From assembly GCA_027448785.1 (NCBI GenBank), contig DAIDMW010000003.1:1-60029 (forward strand): a stretch of DNA of 60,029 nucleotides. Direction: 5' to 3'. The stretch comes from Candidatus Colwellbacteria bacterium (GTDB lineage: Bacteria > Patescibacteriota > Minisyncoccia > UBA6257 > Colwellbacteraceae). The number at the start of each line of letters is the position of its first letter. Positions within the stretch are counted from its first letter, which is position 1. A model generated the notes under the pieces. The model was not told the DNA's origin. It ran no database searches and saw nothing but the letters and a program-made list of their open reading frames with translations. Position numbers and translations under genes: made by a program. Below are positions 14,011 to 51,831 of the stretch, one piece after another.

Positions 14011-14082
14011 GGAGGCATGAGGGAATCGAACCCTCGTTGGCAGTGCCACAAACTGCAGTGTTACCGCTACACCAATGCCTCC
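14011..14082 (-). tRNA. tRNA-His(GUG)
   Basis: Cloverleaf, anticodon arm GCAGT-TTGTGGC-ACTGC, G-1:C73. Confidence 0.95.
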
Positions 14083-14200
14083 ATAAATATCGCCTACATA
14101 CTAACCTAAAAGAGCTCTTAAATCAAAAAACTTCACGAAGCTCGACTCCGTGATTTTTTATTTTTTTAATTTTGTGCTTTTAGCTTTTATCTATTATGTG

Positions 14201-14272
14201 TGCCCCCGAGAGGAATCGAACCCCTATTTGGGGATTAGAAGTCCCTCGTTCTATCCATTGAACTACGGGGGC
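14201..14272 (-). tRNA. tRNA-Arg(UCU)
   Basis: GCCCCCG acceptor, loop CTTCTAA, GGTTCGATTCC T arm. Confidence 0.95.
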
Positions 14273-14332
14273 AGGCTACGCTTATCTTAAGAAAAACGGC
14301 CCTCGCTAGCAAGCTAGTGAGGGCCAAAGCCG

Positions 14333-14587
14333 TCAGGCGCGGGCAGGGGTACCGATGATCTTAAACTCGATCTTTTTCTTTTCGGTCCGGAAACCTTGCG
14401 GGTTGCCGGTTGAAATTTCGGTTACGACCTCCGGGCCCATTGATCCATCCTCGTAGACCGGACGATAAATCACCATGCCGCTCCTGGATGACCACTTGAT
14501 ATCGATAACCTTCAAGAGCGCCGCCTCCTGCGATAAATAGTTGGAACAGATACTGGTTCGGTATGCCACAAAATATAATATCTGCAA
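14333..14587 (-). CDS. Hypothetical protein between tRNAs
   Basis: 84-aa ORF followed by hairpin GGCCCTC...GAGGGCC; no recognisable motif. Confidence 0.35.
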   Translation of the reverse strand: MQILYFVAYRTSICSNYLSQEAALLKVIDIKWSSRSGMVIYRPVYEDGSMGPEVVTEISTGNPQGFRTEKKKIEFKIIGTPARA

Positions 14588-14690
14588 TATGTGCCTCTGT
14601 GGGGAAGCTTCCGTTTCCCCGACCTTTTTCCCGTTCGATTCCAGGACAAAAAATAAAATCTCCTGGATTTATCCAGGAGATTTTAATCTG

Positions 14691-14762
14691 TGCCCTCGCG
14701 GGGAATCGAACCTCGATTAGCGCGTTAGGAGTGCGCTGTTCTATCCATTGAACTACGAGGGC
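14691..14762 (-). tRNA. tRNA-Arg(CCU)
   Basis: GCCCTCG acceptor, loop CTCCTAA. Confidence 0.95.
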
Positions 14763-14837
14763 TGGCATGGATAATATACTAAAAAACCGATGATAATTGC
14801 AATTTACCATTGCGCATAGTAAGATTTTTCACAGACA

Positions 14838-14909
14838 GCCGCGGTAGCTCAGTGGTAGAGCGCATCCCTGAAGAGGATGGCGTCGGGGGTCCGATTCCCT
14901 CCCGCGGCA
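14838..14909 (+). tRNA. tRNA-Phe(GAA)
   Basis: CATCC-CTGAAGA-GGATG anticodon arm; T loop reads TCCGATT. Confidence 0.9.
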
Positions 14910-15023
14910 CACTTCGACTCGCTTTGCCTTGGTCTGAGCTAAACGGAAGACTCGCTCAGTGCAGACACCAGACTCCTCGCATTACACTAATAATTAACCT
15001 GTGGTAAATTAAAAAAGTTGATC

Positions 15024-15094
15024 CGGGGTGTCGTATAGTGGTAGTACGCATGCTTTGGGAGCATGTAGTCCCAGTTCGATTCTGGGCACCCCGA
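15024..15094 (+). tRNA. tRNA-Pro(UGG)
   Basis: CGGGGTG acceptor, CATGC-TTTGGGA-GCATG. Confidence 0.95.
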
Positions 15095-15156
15095 CAAAAG
15101 GACTAATAATCTTCAGGACATCGCGCGATAATAAGCGGCGGATGTATAATAAAAAC

Positions 15157-16119
15157 ATGAAGGAAGATATTTTAAATTTTTCTGCGCAATTCTCCTACAA
15201 ACCAAAAATAGAAAACGCCGGCAAACTTCAGACAAGGCGCGAGTTTATTGTCGCCGGAATGGGAGGATCCCATCTGGCTGCCGATCTTTTAAGAACTTGG
15301 CAGCCCGATCTGCCGCTTTTAATCCACAGCGATTACAACCTGCCTAATCTGCCGAAGGGAAAACTAAAGAAATCTCTCGTCATCGCCAACTCCTACTCAG
15401 GCAACACCGAGGAGACGCTCAGCGCGTTCAACGCGGCGCTAAAGGCAAATCTTCCGCTTATCGCCGTCGGCACCGGAGGAAAGCTGATAACCTCCGCGAA
15501 AAAGAACGGAATCCCGTTTATTCAGACTCCGGTGGCACGCGCTGAGCCGCGGGCGGCCATCGGCTACAACTTCGTTGCGCTCCTCAAGGCGATGAACCTG
15601 AGCCGCGACCTCAAAGAGGCCCACGCCCTGGAAAAATCCCTGCGCCCGGAAAAGCTGGAATCTATCGGGAGGAAGATGGCGCAAGAAATCGGCGGGAAAG
15701 CCCTTGTCGCCTATTCTTCCGAACGCAACCGCGCTCTGGCCTACAACTGGAAGATAAACATGAATGAGACCGCGAAATCCCCGGCCTTCGTCAACGTCTT
15801 TCCGGAGCTAAACCACAACGAGATGAACGCCTTCGCTAAAAAAATAAATAAGGGTTCTTCCGATTTTTATTTTCTGATCCTCAAAGGGAAGAATGAACAG
15901 GCGCGCATCGAAAAGCGAATGGCCATCCTGCGCGAAATCCTAAGCCAGAGAAACTGGCCGGTGAAAGAAATGCCGTTCGGCGACTCTGGCGAACTGCAGG
16001 ATATCTTCCATTGTGTCCTGCTCTCGATGTGGACTTCATATTTCGTCGCTGAAAGCCGCGGAGAGGATCCGGATCATACGCCGATAATCGAAGAGTTTAA
16101 AAAGAGGATGGCAGCCTAA
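15157..16119 (+). CDS. Bifunctional phosphoglucose/phosphomannose isomerase (SIS domain)
   Basis: GMGGS, SYSGNTEET, KININETAK-like, PELNHNEM; start reassigned because the track ORF runs through tRNA-Pro. Confidence 0.9.
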   Translation: MKEDILNFSAQFSYKPKIENAGKLQTRREFIVAGMGGSHLAADLLRTWQPDLPLLIHSDYNLPNLPKGKLKKSLVIANSYSGNTEETLSAFNAALKANLPLIAVGTGGKLITSAKKNGIPFIQTPVARAEPRAAIGYNFVALLKAMNLSRDLKEAHALEKSLRPEKLESIGRKMAQEIGGKALVAYSSERNRALAYNWKINMNETAKSPAFVNVFPELNHNEMNAFAKKINKGSSDFYFLILKGKNEQARIEKRMAILREILSQRNWPVKEMPFGDSGELQDIFHCVLLSMWTSYFVAESRGEDPDHTPIIEEFKKRMAA

Positions 16120-16121
16120 AA

Positions 16122-16751
16122 TCAGCTGTTCGTCATCTGGTCGAACTGCTTCATCAAGCTCTGATACTGGGTATTAAGATTATTGATGGATTTCGCCTGA
16201 TCGTTCATCTGCGAGATGACGCTGTTGATCTTCGCGGCTGACGCTGCGGCGGCGCCGTTCTGCAGGCGGCTGCGCAATAGGTCGAGAAGCTGGTAAGTGT
16301 AGTTGTTGTAGCTAATCAGGCCCTCGACGATTTGCGACTCGATGATAATGGCCTGTAGCCCGATCCTCGCCGCGGATTCCGGCTGGACCTGTGAAAGATT
16401 CGAGGCCATAACGTTCAGTTGGTCGGACAACTGCACCGCGCTGGCGCGCGCTTGGTTATTTTGATTTATCTCCTCCAAAACCAAAGTAAGCCCAGCGGTG
16501 TAGTTTCCACTCTTCTCATCGGCCTGTATCTCCTGTAGATTCTTAATAGAGTTGTCGGAAATACCAACGATGACCTGCGATGCGTCCCCACCGGCCGCCC
16601 TGGCCTTCAAAAACTCGGACGGCACGTGCGGCTGGCCGGAACTATTCAAAAGCCTTAACAGAAAAGCCAAAATAAGAGCCGCCACCACGACGGCGACGAT
16701 CCAAACCCAGTTCTTCCTCACAACTCCCAGTCTGGTAATCATTTTGGGCAA
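16122..16751 (-). CDS. Hypothetical membrane-anchored helical protein
   Basis: N-terminal TM followed by Q/N-rich coiled-coil-like sequence. Confidence 0.7.
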   Translation of the reverse strand: MPKMITRLGVVRKNWVWIVAVVVAALILAFLLRLLNSSGQPHVPSEFLKARAAGGDASQVIVGISDNSIKNLQEIQADEKSGNYTAGLTLVLEEINQNNQARASAVQLSDQLNVMASNLSQVQPESAARIGLQAIIIESQIVEGLISYNNYTYQLLDLLRSRLQNGAAAASAAKINSVISQMNDQAKSINNLNTQYQSLMKQFDQMTNS

Positions 16752-16886
16752 TTCTAACCGATTTTTCTTCGACTGTGAAGTTCGGCCTTCATCTGGACTT
16801 TATAACCAGCGGCACCGCTTTTTGATTGGAAAATTATCACCTATAATTTCTTTACGCATCAAAGGTCGCAAAAAAAAATTAAAAAG

Positions 16887-17591
16887 ATGCCTAAAAACAA
16901 GTTCATCATCACGGGAGCGGTTCTGGTCGCCGCTTTCACTGTTTATTTCGGAGTGTCACGAGCAGCGCTCGCCGACGATAGCGGCGGCGATGCTCAGGGG
17001 ACAAGCGCCGTTTCCAATCTGCTGCCAGTCGTCACCACCACCTCATCGGAAGGAGAAAGTTCCAGTCAGTCGAGCAACCTCTACTCCTACGCCAACGCCT
17101 GGCAGAGCCAAGCCAAGAACCTGGAAGATTCTTTTTCCAGCGCCTTCGACAACACGGTGCAATCCGGAATAAAGGCGGAGCAGATGCCTTCAAGCGTCAG
17201 CATCGGCCCCAACGGGCAGATCCGCATGACCGGCGCAAGCCTCACGGCCGTCTCGGGAAACAATGTAACCGTAAACATTTGGGGGTTGACCTTCAACGTT
17301 AACGCTTCCCAGGCGCAGCTCGCCGGCTCCAGCCAGCAGACCATCGCACTCACCGACATGCAAGTCGGCGACAAGCTGACGGTCACCGGAACGATCGACC
17401 CTTCGACCGGAGCGGTTACGGGACAAGTGATCGTCGACTACTCGCTGGCCACCAGGCAGGCTGGCTCAGCTCTGCAGTCTAGAATCAACCAGCTTCTGCA
17501 GCTCATCCAGCAATTGCAAAGCCAGCTGAATCTAATGCAGGGCGGCACCGGAGCCACAACCTCGGCCGCCACTTCGACTGCCGGGCAGTAA
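16887..17591 (+). CDS. Secreted protein with DUF5666-like OB domain
   Basis: Signal peptide, DMQVGDKLTVTG, C-terminal INQLLQLIQQLQSQL; terminator 17610-17638. Confidence 0.65.
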   Translation: MPKNKFIITGAVLVAAFTVYFGVSRAALADDSGGDAQGTSAVSNLLPVVTTTSSEGESSSQSSNLYSYANAWQSQAKNLEDSFSSAFDNTVQSGIKAEQMPSSVSIGPNGQIRMTGASLTAVSGNNVTVNIWGLTFNVNASQAQLAGSSQQTIALTDMQVGDKLTVTGTIDPSTGAVTGQVIVDYSLATRQAGSALQSRINQLLQLIQQLQSQLNLMQGGTGATTSAATSTAGQ

Positions 17592-17699
17592 GAATCCCGC
17601 CAGACTTGGAAAACGCCCCCTCTGCGGGGCGTTTTCTGATGTTGGCAAATCGCGTTTTTTCGCTTAAAATCAATCCTAGTCAGAGTGACAGCTCTGTTA

Positions 17700-17773
17700 G
17701 CGGGATTAGTATAGTGGTAGTACGCCACCTTGCCAAGGTGATGGCGCCAGTTCGATTCTGGTATCCCGCTCCA
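17700..17773 (+). tRNA. tRNA-Gly(GCC), CCA encoded
   Basis: GCGGGAT acceptor, loop TTGCCAA. Confidence 0.95.
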
Positions 17774-17821
17774 CTAAAATAAGACGACCTTTAAGAGTCG
17801 TCTTATTTTGTAGCGGGATAC

Positions 17822-18292
17822 CTATTTTCCCCATCCCTCGCTCATATAAGGCGCGCAGACCAGCGCGCAAACCGGACGGTCTTTACACTTGATGCCTACC
17901 ATTTTGAACTGCACCTCCCCATACTCGTTCTTGCGGTACTGGCGCATATTCTCCAAAGAATCGCGGATCAATCCCTCAACCTCGGACTCCGATCCGCCTT
18001 GGTGCTCGACGAAAAGGCCACGGCCGGTTTTGTCCTGTATCCAGCCCAAGCCGGCCCAAGCCTCTTTCTCCGGCTCAGTCTCGATCCTAGAACTTAAAAC
18101 CGCATAAAGTCGGTGGCCATACTCCGCGGACTGCGGTTCGGCTTTTTTAACTTCCACCACCGCCTCTGGAGGAATAACCGAGCTTAAATGCAGGATGTTG
18201 TAATTAGCAACACCGGCATCGTTTAAAGCGCTGTCGAAAGCGCTTAATTCGGTCGGGCCGCTGCCGATTCCGTAAGTGACTGATATGTTCAT
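17822..18292 (-). CDS. Pyruvoyl-dependent arginine decarboxylase
   Basis: AFDSALNDAGVANYNILHLSSVIP (self-cleavage Ser-Ser), GLFVEH; start set at MNISV. Confidence 0.88.
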   Translation of the reverse strand: MNISVTYGIGSGPTELSAFDSALNDAGVANYNILHLSSVIPPEAVVEVKKAEPQSAEYGHRLYAVLSSRIETEPEKEAWAGLGWIQDKTGRGLFVEHQGGSESEVEGLIRDSLENMRQYRKNEYGEVQFKMVGIKCKDRPVCALVCAPYMSEGWGK

Positions 18293-18372
18293 AAGGATGA
18301 GTTTAACGTCTTGCCGTCTTCTCCGCAATCGGTTGTCAGGAGGTCCTTTGCCCGCTATATTGGTAAGGTACC

Positions 18373-18446
18373 GGGAGCTTAGTTAAGTGGTATAACTGCG
18401 GTCTCCAAAACCGCTGTCGGGGGTTCGATTCCCTCAGCTCCCGCCA
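18373..18446 (+). tRNA. tRNA-Trp(CCA), CCA encoded
   Basis: GCGGT-CTCCAAA-ACCGC anticodon arm. Confidence 0.95.
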
Positions 18447-27030: not shown

Positions 27031-27558
27031 CTATTTTTTTCTGCTCCGCGGCGAACGGAAAACCAATCCGCTCATCTCTTCCAGATCATAGAAGTGGTCG
27101 GCTGCCTCGCGTAATCTAGCCGACGAGGTGCGTCCGAAGGCGGCCACTTCGACGCTACGTCCCAAGCCCCACTTCAAATACTCGACAAGAGGAACAAAGT
27201 CGCCGTCGCCGGTTACGAGAACCACGACGTCGGCCAGGGTGGCCATACGGATGGAGTCGACCGCCATGCCGACATCCCAGTCCGCCTTCTTCGCTCCGCT
27301 GGAAAAGACCTGTATATCCTTGAGTCTCAGCTCGATGCCCTCCTTCTCCAGCGCCTCAAAAAAAGTCTCCTCCCCGGTCGCGGGATCGCTGCGAACGACG
27401 TAGGCTAGGGCGCGAATAAGCTTGCGGTCTCCGACCACATTCTCCATCAGCACCTTATAGTTGACCCGGCCACCATAGAGATTCTTGGCCGAATGATAAA
27501 GATTTTGAATATCAATGAAAACGCAGACTCGCTGTTCGGAGTGCGAAACAACGGCCAT
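27031..27558 (-). CDS. NYN domain protein (LabA/DUF88)
   Basis: FIDIQNLY, KADWDVGMAVD, TGDGDFVPL. Confidence 0.92.
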   Translation of the reverse strand: MAVVSHSEQRVCVFIDIQNLYHSAKNLYGGRVNYKVLMENVVGDRKLIRALAYVVRSDPATGEETFFEALEKEGIELRLKDIQVFSSGAKKADWDVGMAVDSIRMATLADVVVLVTGDGDFVPLVEYLKWGLGRSVEVAAFGRTSSARLREAADHFYDLEEMSGLVFRSPRSRKK

Positions 27559-27824
27559 TACTTCTTAAGCCCCAGCTTCTTAATGGTTTTTTGGTAGCTG
27601 ACTGGGGAAGTCGCGGCTAGATAGTTTAAGAGCTTGCGCCGTTTGCTGACCATCTTTAAAAGGCCGCGGCGCGAGTGATTATCCTTTGGATGCTGCTTTA
27701 GATGAGCCGCCAGTTCGTCGATTTGGCGCGAAACTAAAGCCACCTGGACCTCAGCCGATCCGGTATCTGTCTCATGCTTCTTAGAAGCTGTAATCACGTT
27801 TTTCTTTACGCGGGAAGATAACAT
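27558..27824 (-). CDS. rpsO: 30S ribosomal protein S15
   Basis: DTGSAEVQVA, HPKDNHSRRGLLKMVSKRRKLLNYL. Confidence 0.98.
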   Translation of the reverse strand: MLSSRVKKNVITASKKHETDTGSAEVQVALVSRQIDELAAHLKQHPKDNHSRRGLLKMVSKRRKLLNYLAATSPVSYQKTIKKLGLKK

Positions 27825-27832
27825 TTGCCACA

Positions 27833-27861
27833 ATGGTAGCAGGAAACGGCCGAGGTGTCAA
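27833..27861 (-). promoter_or_regulatory. rpsO promoter TTGACA-17-TACCAT
   Basis: -35 at 27856-27861, -10 at 27833-27838, 8 nt before the ATG. Confidence 0.75.
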
Positions 27862-29566: not shown

Positions 29567-29648
29567 TGCTCCCGAGAGGAGTCGAACCTCCAACCCTTGC
29601 GGGACATGGTCCTAAGCCATGCGCGTATGCCATTTCCGCCACGGGAGC
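29567..29648 (-). tRNA. tRNA-Leu(UAG)
   Basis: CATGG-CTTAGGA-CCATG, long variable arm. Confidence 0.95.
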
Positions 29649-40075: not shown

Positions 40076-40148
40076 GCGCCCATAGCTCAGTGGTTAGAGC
40101 ATGCGACTTATAATCGCAGGGTCCTTGGTTCAAATCCAAGTGGGCGCA
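40076..40148 (+). tRNA. tRNA-Ile(UAU)
   Basis: TGCGA-CTTATAA-TCGCA anticodon arm, intact cloverleaf, A73. Confidence 0.9.
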
Positions 40149-40150
40149 CT

Positions 40151-40473
40151 AAAGAAACGCAAATCTTAAAGCGCAAAGCACAAAAGAACTACGTTATTGT
40201 TTTTCGCTTTTAGTTTTTCGCTTTGCGCTTCCTGGTCCCGTCCGTGTTTGTAATTTAGGATTTATAGTTTGTGATTTGTTTAGGGTTTAGTATTTAAGAT
40301 TTCGGATTTCCAATATCGGCTAGTCCCTAACCTCTATTCCCTAGTAAGTGTTTTTCGCTTTTAGTTTTTCGCTTTGCGCTTTAATCTTTGCGCTTTCACA
40401 TTTGTTTCGGATTTCGATATTAGGATTTGGAATTTCAGTTATTTTAAATTTTGCGCTTTAAGTTTTGCGCTTC
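40151..40473. repeat. Long composite heptamer repeat between tRNA-Ile and tRNA-Val
   Basis: Contains a 29-nt exact match (40400-40428) to 24768-24796. Confidence 0.85.
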
Positions 40474-40538
40474 ATGTCTCTCGTATTAAATTACGAGACC
40501 TGCTAGAATGATTGAAAGATTTCTGTCTCGCCCGGAGT

Positions 40539-40612
<74 letters not shown>

Positions 40613-47368: not shown

Positions 47369-48247
47369 CTACTCGCTGCCAAGGCGCGAAACGAGGCTGG
47401 CAAATCCGAGACGATTTAAATATTCGGTGATATTTTTTCTGTCTAATTTAAAAAAGAGATCGTTGAGGCTGGCATCGAGTTCGATCTCTTCCAGTTTGGC
47501 CAGTTTTTTGGAAAGCAGCGCTTGCTCCTCGTTCCCTTTTAGCTTTTCCGCAATCTTACTTTCGCTAATTCCCATCTCGCGGAACTGCTGAATTAGATTT
47601 TCGACCGAACCGTACTTCGCGATAAGCTGAGCCGCGGTTTTTGGGCCGATCCCCGGAACCCCGGGAATATTGTCCGACTGGTCGCCGACCAACCCTTTAT
47701 AATCGGGAATCTTCTGCGGCGGAACGCCGAACTTCTCCTCCACTTTAGCCGCGTCATAAACGACGGTGTTGCTGATCCCTTTAATCGGCGCCTCTACCCG
47801 GATTTTATCTCCCTCCACTAGCTGAAAAAGGTCTTGATCGCTCGAGAGCACTAGGATTTTGAGGTCGACGCCGCTACGAAACTTCCCGACCAGGGAGGCG
47901 ATGAGATCATCGGCCTCGTATCCGGGTTTCTCGAAATAAGCGATTCCGAAGCTTTGGAAAAGTCCGCGCGCCGCGATAAGCTGGTCGACCAACTCTTCCT
48001 CGACTTTGGGACGAGTCGCTTTGTAAGCGGCGTATTCACGGCTGCGGCGCGTCGGTTCTGGGCGGTCGAAAGCCGCGGCTAGGTACTCGGGATGGCGCTC
48101 TTTGATGATCTTCAGCAGGGCTCCGGACAATCCGTAGAGCGCGCCGGCCGGACTGCCGTCTTTGGCGGTAAGGGGCGGTAAAGCGTGGTAGGCGCGATGC
48201 AGAAGCGAGTTGGCGTCAATCAGGAGAAGAAGTTTTTCGTTTTCCAT
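47369..48247 (-). CDS. Stand-alone 5'-3' exonuclease (PolA N-terminal / flap endonuclease)
   Basis: LIDANSLLHRAYHA, YEADD, GDQSDNIPGVPGIGPKTA. Confidence 0.92.
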   Translation of the reverse strand: MENEKLLLLIDANSLLHRAYHALPPLTAKDGSPAGALYGLSGALLKIIKERHPEYLAAAFDRPEPTRRSREYAAYKATRPKVEEELVDQLIAARGLFQSFGIAYFEKPGYEADDLIASLVGKFRSGVDLKILVLSSDQDLFQLVEGDKIRVEAPIKGISNTVVYDAAKVEEKFGVPPQKIPDYKGLVGDQSDNIPGVPGIGPKTAAQLIAKYGSVENLIQQFREMGISESKIAEKLKGNEEQALLSKKLAKLEEIELDASLNDLFFKLDRKNITEYLNRLGFASLVSRLGSE

Positions 48248-48701
48248 TTTTAATATTGATTTTTATTATTCTCTCATTTTCCCTTTTCCCGTGGTAAAAA
48301 TCCAGGCGAATCCCGTTTTTAGGGAGTGCACCTTTCACTCGATCAGCCCATTCGATGAGCACTAGATTGCCGGGATCGGAAAATATCTCTGAAAAACCCA
48401 AAGCGGCCAACTCCTCCTTATTCTTCAGTCGGTAAGCGTCCAGGTGGTAGAGTTTCTTAAAAGGAAAATTTGGGTCGCGTAGTTTGAACGAGCGCAGTAG
48501 AAGAAAGGTCGGGCTGGAAACGCGGGCGCGCACCCCGAGCGCCGCGGCCAGCTGCTTGACGAAAGTCGTTTTGCCGGAACCGAGGTCGCCGATCAAAGAG
48601 ATGACGGCAGCCCGCCTGCCTCGCGGGCGCTTCCGCAAAGCCTCGGCCAAGAATCGCGCCGCCGCCCCGGTGTCGCTAAGGCTGTTCGAATGGAAAATCA
48701 T
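48216..48701 (-). CDS. tsaE: tRNA threonylcarbamoyladenosine biosynthesis ATPase
   Basis: GDLGSGKTT, SSPTF, HLDAYRL, IEWAD. Confidence 0.95.
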   Translation of the reverse strand: MIFHSNSLSDTGAAARFLAEALRKRPRGRRAAVISLIGDLGSGKTTFVKQLAAALGVRARVSSPTFLLLRSFKLRDPNFPFKKLYHLDAYRLKNKEELAALGFSEIFSDPGNLVLIEWADRVKGALPKNGIRLDFYHGKRENERIIKINIKNGKRKTSSPD

Positions 48702-49677
48702 TATCTTCTTGTCTGGCCAGATGGTCGAGCGCCGCCTCTTCCAGGACGCGGCCGGCCGGCGTCCGTTTTAAAAATCCCAGCTTCATCAGGTAAGGTTCGT
48801 AAACCTCTTCGATTGCCCCTTGTTCCTCGCCGCTGGCCGCGGCTAACGTCTTTATCCCGACCGGACCTTTTTTAAACTTGTCGGCCAGAAGCTCTAGGAG
48901 CCGCCTTTCCACCGGCTCCAATCCAAGTTCGTCCAGCTCCAGCATCCGCAAAACCGCGCGGGCGGTGGCAGCGTCGATTTCATCCGAATGGTTGACTGCC
49001 GCGTAATCGCGCGCTCTCTTTAAGAGCCGGTTGGCGGTGCGCGGAGTAAAGCGCGAAGCCCTAGCTAAGATTTTTAAGCCAGCTTGATCCGCCTTGACGC
49101 CTAAAATCTTGGCCGACCTTTTTAAAATATCTTCGATCTCGTTCTCGCCGTAAAAATCCAGGCGGAAGATTGCGCCGAAGCGGGAGCGTAGAGGGGCGGA
49201 GAGCATATTGAAATGCGTGGTCGCCGCTACCAGAGTGAACGGAGGCAGGTCGATCGAGACCGCGTGCGCTCCGGTGCCCTTACCGATCAAAATATGCAGC
49301 CGGCGGCTCTCCATCGCCGGATAAAGAATCTCCTCGGCGACGGGGTTCAGGCGGTGCGCCTCGTCCACAAATAAAATCTCTCCCTCCTCCAATCCGCTTA
49401 AGAGCGCGGCGAGGTCTCCGGGTTTTTCGATCGACGACCCGGTGATTACCCTGAGCGGCGCGCCCATCTCCTTCGCCACCAGGGTCGCGAGCGTCGTTTT
49501 ACCTAAGCCCGCCTGGCCGTAGAATAAAAGGTGGTCTATCGCCTCGCCGCGCAGCTTGGCCGCCTTGATAATCAGCTGTAAGTTCTCTTTAATCTTCTCC
49601 TGGCCGACATACTCCCCCCATTGACCGGGACGGAGCGCCGAATCCACCGCCCGCTCGTCGATCTCCTTCTTTTTCAC
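48676..49677 (-). CDS. ruvB: Holliday junction branch migration helicase
   Basis: LRP..EYVGQ, GQAGLGKTT, FVDEAHRL, RTPAGR. Confidence 0.97.
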   Translation of the reverse strand: MKKKEIDERAVDSALRPGQWGEYVGQEKIKENLQLIIKAAKLRGEAIDHLLFYGQAGLGKTTLATLVAKEMGAPLRVITGSSIEKPGDLAALLSGLEEGEILFVDEAHRLNPVAEEILYPAMESRRLHILIGKGTGAHAVSIDLPPFTLVAATTHFNMLSAPLRSRFGAIFRLDFYGENEIEDILKRSAKILGVKADQAGLKILARASRFTPRTANRLLKRARDYAAVNHSDEIDAATARAVLRMLELDELGLEPVERRLLELLADKFKKGPVGIKTLAAASGEEQGAIEEVYEPYLMKLGFLKRTPAGRVLEEAALDHLARQEDNDFPFEQP

Positions 49678-49725
49678 GCTTATAGCTTACGCTATCCGCC
49701 GTTAAATCGCCACCACTTACCCCCC

Positions 49726-49754
49726 TTGACAGAAAATTGATAATATGTTAGCTT
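49726..49754 (+). promoter_or_regulatory. Sigma70 promoter TTGACA-17-TAGCTT with extended -10 TG
   Basis: -35 at 49726-49731, -10 at 49749-49754; no conserved CDS downstream on this strand. Confidence 0.7.
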
Positions 49755-49760
49755 ACAAAC

Positions 49761-49900
49761 GTAAGAGCATAAGTCTGCGGGTTATGGAGATGGTCTTAGC
49801 TCTAGGACGGATTGGCTCCGGCTGGGCCGCTCCTCGGAACATCTCCTAACTTCTTCTTTATGAAGATCTATACCCAATAGCCCGCAGGCTTATGCTCTTA
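49761..49900 (+). ncRNA. Candidate structured ncRNA of unknown family
   Basis: 24-bp closing stem (49762-49785 with 49877-49900) enclosing further helices; starts 7 nt after the -10 box. Confidence 0.55.
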
Positions 49901-51232
49901 TACTTTCCACTCGATCGGGCCGGTTATTCTTTCCACCTCCTCGATCGTCGTCTCTCCCGCTAAAACCTTTAGCAGTCCGTCGGCTTGCAATCCGATCATT
50001 CCCGCCGCCTTGGCGGCTTTTTCCATTTCGCCCTCGGTCGCCCCTTTGTTGACCAGTTCCTCAAACGCGTCATCGACTTCCAAAAACTCGAAGATTCCGA
50101 TCCTTCCCTTATATCCGCCCTCACACTCGCCGCAGCCGGTGGCGGAAAAGACCTTCATCCCTTCCAACGATGGTTTGTCCACCTTTGCGGGCACCGTTGA
50201 GAGGAAGGCGGAAATCTTATTTTTCTCCTCCTCGCTTAATTGGCGCTCGGCCTTACACTTCGGGCAAAGGAGGCGAACCAGTCGCTGCGCCACGACTAAA
50301 TCCAAGGCCGGACCGATAATGCGTGGATTGACGCCGAGATCGATTAGACGGGGGACGGCACCGGCGGCATCATTGGTGTGCAGCGTGGAAAAAACCAGAT
50401 GGCCGGTTAAAGAGGCGTGCAAGCTCGTCTCAGCCGTCTCTTGGTCGCGGATCTCGCCCACCAGGATTACGTCCGGGTCCTGCCTAAGGATGGATTTTAG
50501 TCCGTTATTGAAATCGTAATTTCCGGCCTTATCGACCTGGGTTTGTTCGATTCCCGCCAAGCGGTACTCGATCGGATCCTCGATGGTGATAATTTTCAGC
50601 TCCGGATTTTGTACTTCCTTCAAGAAGGCGTAGAGACTGGTCGTCTTGCCGCTACCGGTCGGGCCGGTCACGAGGATCATCCCGTTAGGCTTCTTCAACT
50701 CTTGATTGATCAGCTCGCGGTCGTCCGCCCGTAATCCCAAATCGTCCAACTTCAACGCGATCGTCTTTGGATTTAGTATTCTCACCACCACCATCTCGCC
50801 GAACTCAGCCGGAATGGTGGAAACGCGGGCGTCGATCGTCGTGTCCGCTCTTTTCATGGAAAACCGCCCGTCCTGAGGGGAGTTGACGACGTTTATCTTC
50901 AGTCCGGAGATAAGCTTGATTCTGCTTAAAATCAGGTCGTAGATATGGCTTGGGACGACTATTAGATCGTAAAGGAGTCCGTCTAAGCGGAAGCGAAGCC
51001 GCGCCCCTTCGCGGCTGGTTTCAAAATGGACGTCGCTCGCATCCAACTCAGTGGCCAGAGAAAAGATGAGTTCGGCGGTCGAGGTAGTTGAGTAGCCGCT
51101 TCCGCTCCAGCTCGCCGCTTCCGCCTTGAGCTTTTCCTGGGCCTGGGCCAGGGTAGAAACTCCGAGCTTCTGGATCGGCAGCTCGTTTATAAGATCGCGT
51201 TCCCCTGGATTATTCTTCCCCGCCTCGGTCAT
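49898..51232 (-). CDS. GspE/PilB-family secretion/pilus ATPase
   Basis: GPTGSGKTT, TIEDPIEY, LRQDPDVILVGEIRD, tetra-Cys zinc motif. Confidence 0.93.
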   Translation of the reverse strand: MTEAGKNNPGERDLINELPIQKLGVSTLAQAQEKLKAEAASWSGSGYSTTSTAELIFSLATELDASDVHFETSREGARLRFRLDGLLYDLIVVPSHIYDLILSRIKLISGLKINVVNSPQDGRFSMKRADTTIDARVSTIPAEFGEMVVVRILNPKTIALKLDDLGLRADDRELINQELKKPNGMILVTGPTGSGKTTSLYAFLKEVQNPELKIITIEDPIEYRLAGIEQTQVDKAGNYDFNNGLKSILRQDPDVILVGEIRDQETAETSLHASLTGHLVFSTLHTNDAAGAVPRLIDLGVNPRIIGPALDLVVAQRLVRLLCPKCKAERQLSEEEKNKISAFLSTVPAKVDKPSLEGMKVFSATGCGECEGGYKGRIGIFEFLEVDDAFEELVNKGATEGEMEKAAKAAGMIGLQADGLLKVLAGETTIEEVERITGPIEWKV

Positions 51233-51309: not shown

Positions 51310-51831
51310 ATGTCCGGACACAGCAAATGGTCTCAAATCAAGCACAAAAAAGAGGCGACCGACAAGAAAAGGGGCGCCTTATTCTCCAAGCTTGTGCACA
51401 ACATCCGCGTAGCCGCCAAAAGCGACCCTAACCCGGAGTTTAACCCCAGGCTGCGCACAGCGATATTGAAAGCTAAGAACGAAGGCATGCCCCAGGAAAA
51501 CATCGAGCGGGCGATCAAGAATGCCTCCGAGGCCGACGAGCTGGAGGATGTTTTAATCGAAGCTTACGGTCCGGAGGGATCGGGGATAATCATTGAGGGC
51601 GTCACCGACAATAAAAACCGTACGATTAACGAGCTGAAGTCTGTCTTCAAAGATTTCGAGGTTAAGCTCGCTCCGCAAGGAAGCTTGTTGTGGTCTTTCG
51701 AGCGCGCCGACGACGGATACAAGCCGAAATTCCCGGTCCCCGTTTCCGAACAAGCCAGGGAAAAAATAAACAAGCTGGCGGAGGAGCTGCGGGAAAGGGA
51801 GGATATAAACGAGGTTTACATCAATATTTAA
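51310..51831 (+). CDS. YebC/PmpR family protein (short form)
   Basis: MSGHSKWSQIKHKK, EAYGPEG, VTDNKNRT. Confidence 0.93.
   Translation: MSGHSKWSQIKHKKEATDKKRGALFSKLVHNIRVAAKSDPNPEFNPRLRTAILKAKNEGMPQENIERAIKNASEADELEDVLIEAYGPEGSGIIIEGVTDNKNRTINELKSVFKDFEVKLAPQGSLLWSFERADDGYKPKFPVPVSEQAREKINKLAEELREREDINEVYINI

Follow-up and report, generated by a model that had tools for sequence, protein, structure and literature searches.

What is encoded in the short interval between ruvB and the gene for a PilB-like ATPase in a Candidatus Colwellbacteria genome? The interval is part of a stretch of 60,029 nucleotides (contig DAIDMW010000003.1), hereafter called the window, and the initial annotation of this window had placed in it an orphan structured RNA with its own promoter, proposing a divergent 6S-like RNA, a type I toxin-antitoxin-like folded mRNA or a new class of small RNA (sRNA). 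The source organism belongs to the candidate phyla radiation (CPR, or Patescibacteria), a group of bacteria with tiny genomes and very few known regulatory RNAs. Sequence comparison yields a well-supported new family of structured non-coding RNA (ncRNA) of Paceibacteria-type bacteria, which is conserved, with strong covariation, across lineages with RuvB proteins that are merely ~60% identical. It is very probable that this is a real family of trans-acting ncRNAs in Paceibacteria-type CPR/Patescibacteria, with the window copy located at 49761 to ~49903 on the + strand. The proposal of a new sRNA class was borne out: the element is conserved in 16 lineages, its fold covaries, and neither the window copy nor nine relatives have a match in Rfam 15.

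Conservation, fold and covariation of the RNA

Homologous loci were gathered with RuvB as an anchor, by scans of genomes and metagenome contigs and by a protein search for contigs that encode RuvB homologues (59-78% identity). Sixteen lineages of Paceibacteria-like CPR bacteria, with RuvB proteins that are 57-96% identical, have the same element beside ruvB, and it is present at every collected ruvB locus of the Patescibacteria/Paceibacteria type. The loci are L001; L002, L003, L017, L018 and L019; L004; L031 and L032; L033 and L034; L035-L037; L038-L041 (Colwellbacteria-like); L042; L043 and L044; L045 (Harrisonbacteria-like); L046 and L047; L048-L050; L051; and L052. The consensus fold was obtained with MAFFT and RNAalifold, together with a covariance model (R1) and a realignment (A4). 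R1 gave no match in any of 25 ruvB loci from Actinobacteria, Acidobacteria and further lineages outside the Paceibacteria (L005-L016 and L020-L030). The parts of the RNA in the window, all on the + strand, are as follows.

49761..49903, +: predicted mature RNA, ~141-145 nt (5' end inferred from the promoter, 3' end from the end of P1)
49761..49785, +: 5' arm of helix P1, with the conserved inner CUGCGGG at 49775-49781
49786..49795, +: 5' strand of helix P2, GGAGAUGGUC, pairing with 49837-49846, with one G-A mismatch (49793/49839)
49796..49804, +: conserved asymmetric bulge UUAGCUCUA, from alignments A2 and A4; the U and G of its 'UAG' are invariant
49805..49833, +: apical hairpin, comprising P3 (GGA/UCC, invariant), P4 (5-6 bp, covarying) and a GC-UCCG-GC tip with a UYCG-type loop
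49837..49846, +: 3' strand of P2, GAACAUCUCC, supported by covariation
49847..49852, +: single-stranded -10-like hexamer UAACUU, which opens the 3' central loop
49852..49866, +: P5 hairpin UCUUC-UUUAU-GAAGA, inside the 3' loop
49867..49876, +: J5/1 linker UCUAUACCCA with a conserved YCYA motif, of which C and A are nearly invariant in alignment A2
49877..49901, +: 3' arm of P1, with the conserved CCCGCAG at 49881-49887; its end overlaps the ATPase stop codon (49898-49900)
49784..49849, +: 21-codon open reading frame (ORF) inside the RNA, not conserved and judged non-coding

Model R1 detects the window copy at 49755-49911 (+) with 147.7 bits (E 1e-41), and the reverse strand scores 41.5 bits. 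The + strand folds at -72.7 kcal/mol (z = -8.35 against dinucleotide shuffles) and the - strand at -57.8 kcal/mol (z = -4.97). The ends of the RNA form a closing stem, as annotated, but its size had to be corrected from 24 bp with two G-U pairs to 25 bp (49761-49785 with 49877-49901) with three (49761/49901, 49774/49888 and 49782/49880). The 20-nt arm sequence occurs window-wide only in the two arms, the expected number of chance matches being 0.01. The complement of the P1 5' arm (19 nt, window) reads 5'-AUAACCCGCAGACUUAUGC and the 3' arm of the RNA reads AUAGCCCGCAGGCUUAUGC, so that the two differ at two G-U positions. P1 encloses 91 nt in the window copy and roughly 85-125 nt in the homologues.

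Inside P1, the pairing of GGAGAUG with CAUCUCC (49786-92 with 49840-46) and the hairpin UCUUC-UUUAU-GAAGA, both of which had been read from the single sequence, are present and backed by covariation. Two small hairpins had also been proposed (49793-49808 and about 49813-49829): an apical hairpin at ~49805-49833 is supported, whereas the one at 49793-49808 exists in the single-sequence fold only and is replaced, in the comparison, by an extension of P2 (49786-49795 with 49837-49846) and the bulge UUAGCUCUA. The description of the RNA as more branched than the 6S rod was another artefact of the single-sequence fold. Judged by covariation, the predicted structure is established as a rod with a one-sided central loop.

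In the consensus, P1 consists of 20-26 bp, with an outer part that varies with compensation and an inner part in which CUG(C/G/U)GGG pairs with CCC(G/C/A)CAG. The 5' junction between P1 and P2 (J1/2) spans 0-8 nt; in about half of the lineages, the window among them, it spans only 0-2 nt. P2 has 10 bp, often with one mismatch, and is followed by the asymmetric bulge; invariant P3 (GGA/UCC), P4 of 5-6 bp and the tip GC-UYCG-GC make up the apex, and the apical arm as a whole contains ~21-23 stacked pairs. The central loop (25-55 nt) is on the 3' side only and holds, in that order, a UAnnnU-type hexamer, hairpin P5 and the YCYA linker. The aligned hexamer is UAUAAU in two lineages, UUUAAU in two, UAAACU in one, UAUCCU in two and UAACUU in the W group and L004, its first and last U being kept nearly always. 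The family length ranges from 135 to 175 nt, and the arm lengths are constant. A pseudoknot in which the CCCAAU linker would pair with AUUGG in the apical arm, spotted by eye, was rejected; it can form in the window and L002 but fails in L031, L033 and L046.

The regions adjacent to ruvB in the relatives were tested for covariation, a check that the initial annotation had recommended. Standard pairs occupy 93.6% of the cells, compared with 75.2 ± 0.9% after shuffling and with 40-52% in controls in which the partners were displaced by 1-3 columns. Changes on both sides were found at 37 of the 48 pairs, and none of 500 shuffles matched any observed measure. Both sides have changed at 18 of the 22 modelled pairs of P1, the inner GGG/CCC of which is invariant, and compensatory changes are seen in 9 of the 10 pairs of P2 and in all five pairs of P5 (98.7% of cells paired). 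G-U cells outnumber A-C cells (87 versus 17), and the R1 scores are 97-148 bits on the forward strand and 24-43 bits on the reverse strand; therefore, it is the strand divergent from ruvB (+) that represents the functional RNA.

Comparisons within lineages are also informative. A variant contig of the window lineage contains wobble-compatible changes in P1 (49761 G>A, 49768 C>U and 49897 C>U) and a change in P2 (49793 G>U) that turns the G-A mismatch into a U-A pair; its other changes are in loops (49818; 49859-61), the apical loop UCCG becoming UUCG. An L002-type variant differs at one position in the 173-nt RNA versus 25 in the adjacent 190 nt (spacer and ruvB). At the level of sequence, the RNA is under purifying selection.

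The family shows some variation in architecture. L004 shares the promoter, the position and the overall architecture, yet R1 gives no match to it; it folds to the same plan with an extra small hairpin in the 5' junction. This locus was regarded as a divergent relative, and the covariation statistics do not include it. Some lineages have a leader of 40-70 nt ahead of P1. Of the 14 distinct homologues aligned with the model, a set without L004, 10 have a run of at least four U behind P1, and P1 of the window has no U-run on either strand.

Promoter and genomic setting

The promoter and the two neighbouring genes in the window are as follows.

49726..49731, +: -35 hexamer TTGACA, read from the sequence; a perfect equivalent is present in 16/16 homologous loci
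49746..49754, +: extended -10 TGtTAGCTT, after a 17-nt spacer; TGN-TANNNN is present in 16/16 loci
48676..49677, -: ruvB, the divergent neighbour, from the ORF table, with Pfam domains RuvB_N, AAA_lid_4 and RuvB_C
49898..51232, -: gene for a T2SSE/PilB-type ATPase, the convergent neighbour, from the ORF table, with Pfam T2SSE (E 6.5e-115)

The near-consensus promoter TTGACA-17-TGnTAGCTT had been annotated about 7 nt before the stem. It is plainly readable in the sequence and is kept at 16 of 16 loci; in every lineage, TTGACA is perfect, the 17-nt spacer ends in TGN and the -10 has the form TANNNN. The predicted start, G49761, is ~7 nt past the -10 and is the first base of P1. This is a dedicated, near-consensus promoter of the sigma-70 type with an extended -10. 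The strict form TTGACA-N14-TGN-TANNNT occurs only twice in the 60-kb window, both strands counted, and the promoter of the RNA is among the two strongest-looking in the window. The second strict promoter (27833-27861, -) precedes a 91-amino-acid (aa) ORF (27558-27833, -) that is S15-like (rpsO) by sequence. The RNA promoter and this rpsO promoter are of the same class, which shows that this promoter type marks highly expressed genes in the source organism.

The Pfam domains confirm both neighbours named in the initial annotation. The RNA gene is on the + strand and both neighbours are on the - strand; it is thus divergent from ruvB and convergent with the ATPase gene. Its -35 is 48 nt from the ruvB start codon in the window and 5-50 nt across the loci. 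At the other end, the final four bases of the stem run into the ATPase stop codon (49898-49900, - strand), an overlap that the initial annotation had described correctly. A scan of the - strand near the RNA locus found no promoter-like site for ruvB; therefore, the ATPase gene and ruvB probably form one transcription unit, with the RNA gene antisense inside it.

In 15 of the 16 lineages, the ATPase gene and ruvB flank the RNA gene and lie on the strand opposite to it. At locus L042, the orientation of the element to ruvB is reversed and a further gene stands between the element and the ATPase gene; the full structure (99 bits) is nevertheless kept, together with a dedicated promoter (TTGACA-17-TGcTATACT) and a U-run. 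Within the L002 group, the gene downstream of the RNA is co-oriented and differs between strains, and the RNA is nearly identical.

Several other features of these loci were observed. In L002, L003, L017 and L018, differing small genes for apparent membrane proteins are found ~30-40 nt 3' of the RNA, on the same strand and without an intervening terminator, and in L002-type loci a hypervariable spot thus adjoins the highly conserved RNA. L042 contains a second non-coding stretch of ~170 nt (1320-1495, +) between the RNA element and ruvB, with strong hairpins (GTCGGGGTTCGTCC...GACCCGACA; GCCGTTGCACGGC followed by a T-run), which may represent another small RNA or the leader of ruvB. In L035-L037 (1990-2200, - strand of the loci), ~300 extra non-coding bases that include A/T-rich direct repeats (GATCTTAGATCGTGGATCTTAAATTTAATATCTAAA...) are present between the RNA terminator and the ATPase gene.

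As for the surrounding genes, tsaE (48216-48701) overlaps the end of ruvB (48676-49677) by 26 nt in the window. Most relatives with ~60% RuvB identity have a lamin-tail-domain (LTD) gene between ruvB and tsaE, which neither the window nor its close relatives contain. In the window lineage, the PilB-like ATPase has a length of 444 aa, compared with 430-447 aa in L031-L037 and 556-561 aa in the other lineages (L038-L052 comparison); the ATPases of 556-561 aa have an N-terminal MshEN-type region, and the short form is without that domain. A YebC/TACO1-family ORF (51310-51831, +) encodes 173 aa in the window and 173-175 aa in relatives, and it is shorter than the family norm, its Pfam match covering the N-terminal domain and part of the second domain. 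The window also contains ten tRNA genes (14011-18443, 29567-29648 and 40076-40612), seven of which cluster, on both strands, at 14.0-18.4 kb.

Identity of the RNA and rival explanations

Searches for known families gave little. At the gathering score, a search of the whole window with Rfam 15 gave no match to the element and no 6S-type match; the sole permissive match, to a plant microRNA (E 4.8), was judged to be due to chance. ARAGORN predicted no tRNA or transfer-messenger RNA (tmRNA) at the element. The 60-kb window contains no further copy detectable with R1, and there is one copy per locus. A blastn search against phages and plasmids gave no match to the element, and a core-motif scan of viral contigs pointed to three loci, which R1 revealed to be chance matches to the tip hairpin alone. 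The initial statement that features of signal recognition particle (SRP) RNA and tmRNA are lacking holds, the tip being a UYCG tetraloop, and SRP RNA, tmRNA, RNase P RNA and Y RNA were all rejected as identities on the same three points (Rfam, ARAGORN and the tip). A miniature inverted-repeat or repetitive extragenic palindromic element (MITE/REP-type repeat) was rejected as well, given one copy in 60 kb, synteny in 15 of the 16 lineages and negative searches of phages, plasmids and viral contigs. So was a riboswitch or 5' leader, the downstream gene being convergent at most loci and strain-variable in the L002 group.

Taken together, the promoter, the fold, the conserved nucleotides, the constant arms and the persistence of the element in L042 suggest that the RNA is stable, acts in trans and is recognised by a protein. 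The RNA probably represents a previously undescribed class of housekeeping RNA confined to Paceibacteria-type CPR bacteria, either a minimal polymerase decoy or the partner of an undescribed CPR protein. Our tentative preference, which is based on analogy, is that it may be a 6S-like decoy of the sigma-A RNA polymerase. It is classed here as 6S-like in its proposed mechanism and not as a member of the 6S family; the initial label '6S-like' can accordingly be kept as the best functional analogy, but not as a family membership, there being no Rfam 6S match.

As such a decoy, the RNA would act in trans on the sigma-A RNA polymerase holoenzyme. The apical arm (~21-23 stacked bp) would take the place of the promoter duplex upstream (-35 to -12), the single-stranded UAnnnU and the 3' loop would mimic the non-template -10 and bubble strand, and P1 (20-26 bp) would mimic the downstream duplex. 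The inner P1 pairing CUGCGGG/CCCGCAG could template a short G+C-rich product RNA or contact the polymerase. As a likely by-product, strong convergent transcription should dampen or punctuate read-through into ruvB, which is expected because the RNA gene is antisense inside the ATPase-ruvB transcription unit.

Several findings weigh against a polymerase decoy. Apart from the chance match to a plant microRNA, and with a threshold of E <= 10, neither a 6S-type nor any other Rfam 15 family matched at 49600-50000, and no family, including 6S, 6S-Flavo and Ms1, matched in nine homologous loci at E <= 5. The 5' strand between P1 and P2 has just 0-8 nt (0-2 nt in the window), and P1 is a nearly perfect helix whereas 6S arms are bulged. 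The resemblance of a short A/U-rich hexamer to a -10 could be coincidental, and L038 and L042 fit the -10-like hexamer poorly. As for expression, no contig in three metatranscriptomes of the window's own mine-drainage study covered the region. In four RNA-type runs (wastewater and soil), short contigs lie over the L002-type element with the flanking genes uncovered, but they reach into the promoter or the downstream gene and carry no strand information, and they may represent DNA carry-over or antisense mRNA. Runs of study P7, which are of uncertain type, behave like DNA, with even, low coverage that extends to ruvB.

Almost as likely as the polymerase decoy, although itself doubtful, is a trans-acting structured RNA with another protein partner, such as the RNA subunit or the sponge of a CPR protein. 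The CUGCGGG/CCCGCAG helix, the UAG bulge, GGA/UCC and the YCYA linker would then form a binding surface, and RNase III might process P1. That the invariant nucleotides are in helices and bulges, and not in a two-sided bubble, fits this explanation, as do the absence of an Rfam 6S match and the near absence of the 5' junction; moreover, the constant 20-26 bp of P1 would suit a double-stranded RNA-binding protein or RNase III, and the leaders of 40-70 nt in some lineages suggest 5' processing. However, apart from the synteny that the gene block shows in general, no gene for a possible partner is found in consistent linkage with the RNA, the architecture matches no known family, and the -10-like hexamer and the promoter-footprint-like arm lengths are left unexplained. 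The gene arrangement brings a third explanation into consideration, namely that the RNA serves chiefly to regulate or insulate the ATPase-ruvB operon as an antisense transcript in cis, with transcriptional interference, and RNase III cleavage of a ~140-bp duplex with the read-through mRNA, lowering or uncoupling ruvB expression. The position opposite the two genes in 15 of the 16 lineages, the short distance of the -35 from the ruvB start codon (just 5-50 nt) and the lack of a ruvB promoter-like site, so that ruvB is probably transcribed from the ATPase gene across the antisense of the RNA, are all in keeping with it. We nevertheless regard this as improbable: an antisense function does not call for internal structure, whereas covariation is seen in P2, P4 and P5 and the G-U pairs reveal selection on the + strand fold; L042 keeps the full element in an intergenic position, co-oriented with ruvB and antisense to nothing; and the RNA of the L002 group is nearly identical despite strain-variable downstream genes. 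Since the whole gene block is syntenic, the conserved position is weak evidence. Convergent transcription and a duplex with read-through mRNA are expected as side effects, and they could provide a secondary function.

The remaining two explanations have very little probability. A terminator of the ATPase gene (possibly bidirectional), or a palindromic or mobile repeat, without its own RNA product is highly improbable, even though the stem abuts the ATPase stop codon and, in the L031, L033 and L035 lineages, P1 has an A-run on one side and a U-run on the other, as in a bidirectional terminator. The 'loop' of such a terminator would contain ~100 nt of covarying structure, the - strand stem has A-C mismatches and folds worse, the window copy is without a U-run on either strand, and a terminator scan finds no site; a mobile repeat is at odds with the single copy in the window and with the absence of matches in phages, plasmids and viral contigs. 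The narrower case raised at the outset, in which the stem would serve as the ATPase terminator only, is excluded by the covarying internal helices, the excess of G-U over A-C cells, the promoters conserved at 16 of 16 loci and L042. Still less probable is an mRNA for a small (21-aa) toxin or peptide with a type I toxin-antitoxin-like fold. The ATG-initiated 21-codon ORF reported at 49784-49849 does exist within a highly folded RNA, but in most homologues it is absent, frame-shifted or cut to 2-6 codons. There is no ATG in L046 and L048, and the position-equivalent ATG is missing in L002/L003, L038, L045, L051, L052 and L004, the only ATG of the last being elsewhere and opening a 3-codon ORF; a stop occurs within 2-6 codons in L035, L042 and L043, and the L031 frame runs on. 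The proposed check of ORF conservation therefore came out negative, and the toxin-antitoxin proposal was abandoned with it. In addition, no Shine-Dalgarno sequence is present upstream, the ATG arises from the P1/P2 junction, and there is no conserved hydrophobic peptide.

In the searchable literature, we found no report that pairs 6S RNA with CPR, Parcubacteria, Patescibacteria or Saccharibacteria, and no description of the present RNA or of a lineage-specific structured sRNA in CPR. A divergent 6S analogue, if true, would fill this absence of 6S RNA reports. The RNA would thus be either an unusually minimal version of the global transcription regulator that the group is missing or a ribonucleoprotein that is new altogether. 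If it is a decoy, a mimic of a promoter fork junction with a one-sided bubble would be a new solution to the 6S problem. In either version, if true, a conserved ribonucleoprotein would be added to some of the smallest bacterial genomes. The alignment is usable as the seed of a new Rfam family and for the annotation of CPR genomes.

Comparison with known RNAs

The RNA shares features with several known systems. Like cis-antisense sRNAs and 'excludon' units, its gene is on the opposite strand inside a probable ATPase-ruvB unit, has a strong promoter and is complementary to the intergenic mRNA over its full length; unlike in these systems, its fold is under selection and the element persists antisense to nothing (L042). 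Bacterial Y RNAs (YrlA) also have a long stem formed by the ends, a conserved protein-binding segment and a multi-helix top module. However, the present RNA has no Rfam match and no T-loop or tRNA-like module (a UYCG tip, and none predicted by ARAGORN), and there is no rsr/Ro gene near it.

Another related system is Ms1 of Actinobacteria, a 6S-related RNA that binds the core polymerase, is missed by standard 6S models and was reportedly found via synteny and not via its sequence (PMC9130861). Ms1 is likewise a lineage-specific, rod-shaped RNA, but it is ~300 nt long, binds the core enzyme, belongs to another phylum and has no sequence or model similarity to the present RNA.

6S RNA is defined as a rod with a closing stem formed by both ends, a bulged apical stem and a central unpaired region, in which the 3' strand of the central bubble holds a hairpin and a '-10'-like region (PMC8876501, PMC8414754). 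The present RNA differs from it in giving no covariance-model match, in the length of the 5' bubble strand (0-8 nt versus ~15 nt), in a closing helix that is nearly perfect versus interrupted and in being somewhat shorter; canonical 6S RNA has a large 5' central bulge that holds the start site of the product RNA, and the present RNA is without such a bulge. An incidental parallel is that the 6S gene of Firmicutes adjoins rarA, an AAA+ relative of ruvB. The two RNAs are alike in having a sigma-70 promoter of the abundant type, a rod of 135-175 nt, a closing stem of the ends, a bulged apical stem and an unpaired central region, the 3' strand of which contains the covarying P5 hairpin and a -10-like stretch that would serve in mimicry. 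Conserved G-C pairs flank the loop on both sides in the two RNAs, and conserved sequence is found on the 5' strand of the closing stem, where 6S RNA encodes its product RNA.

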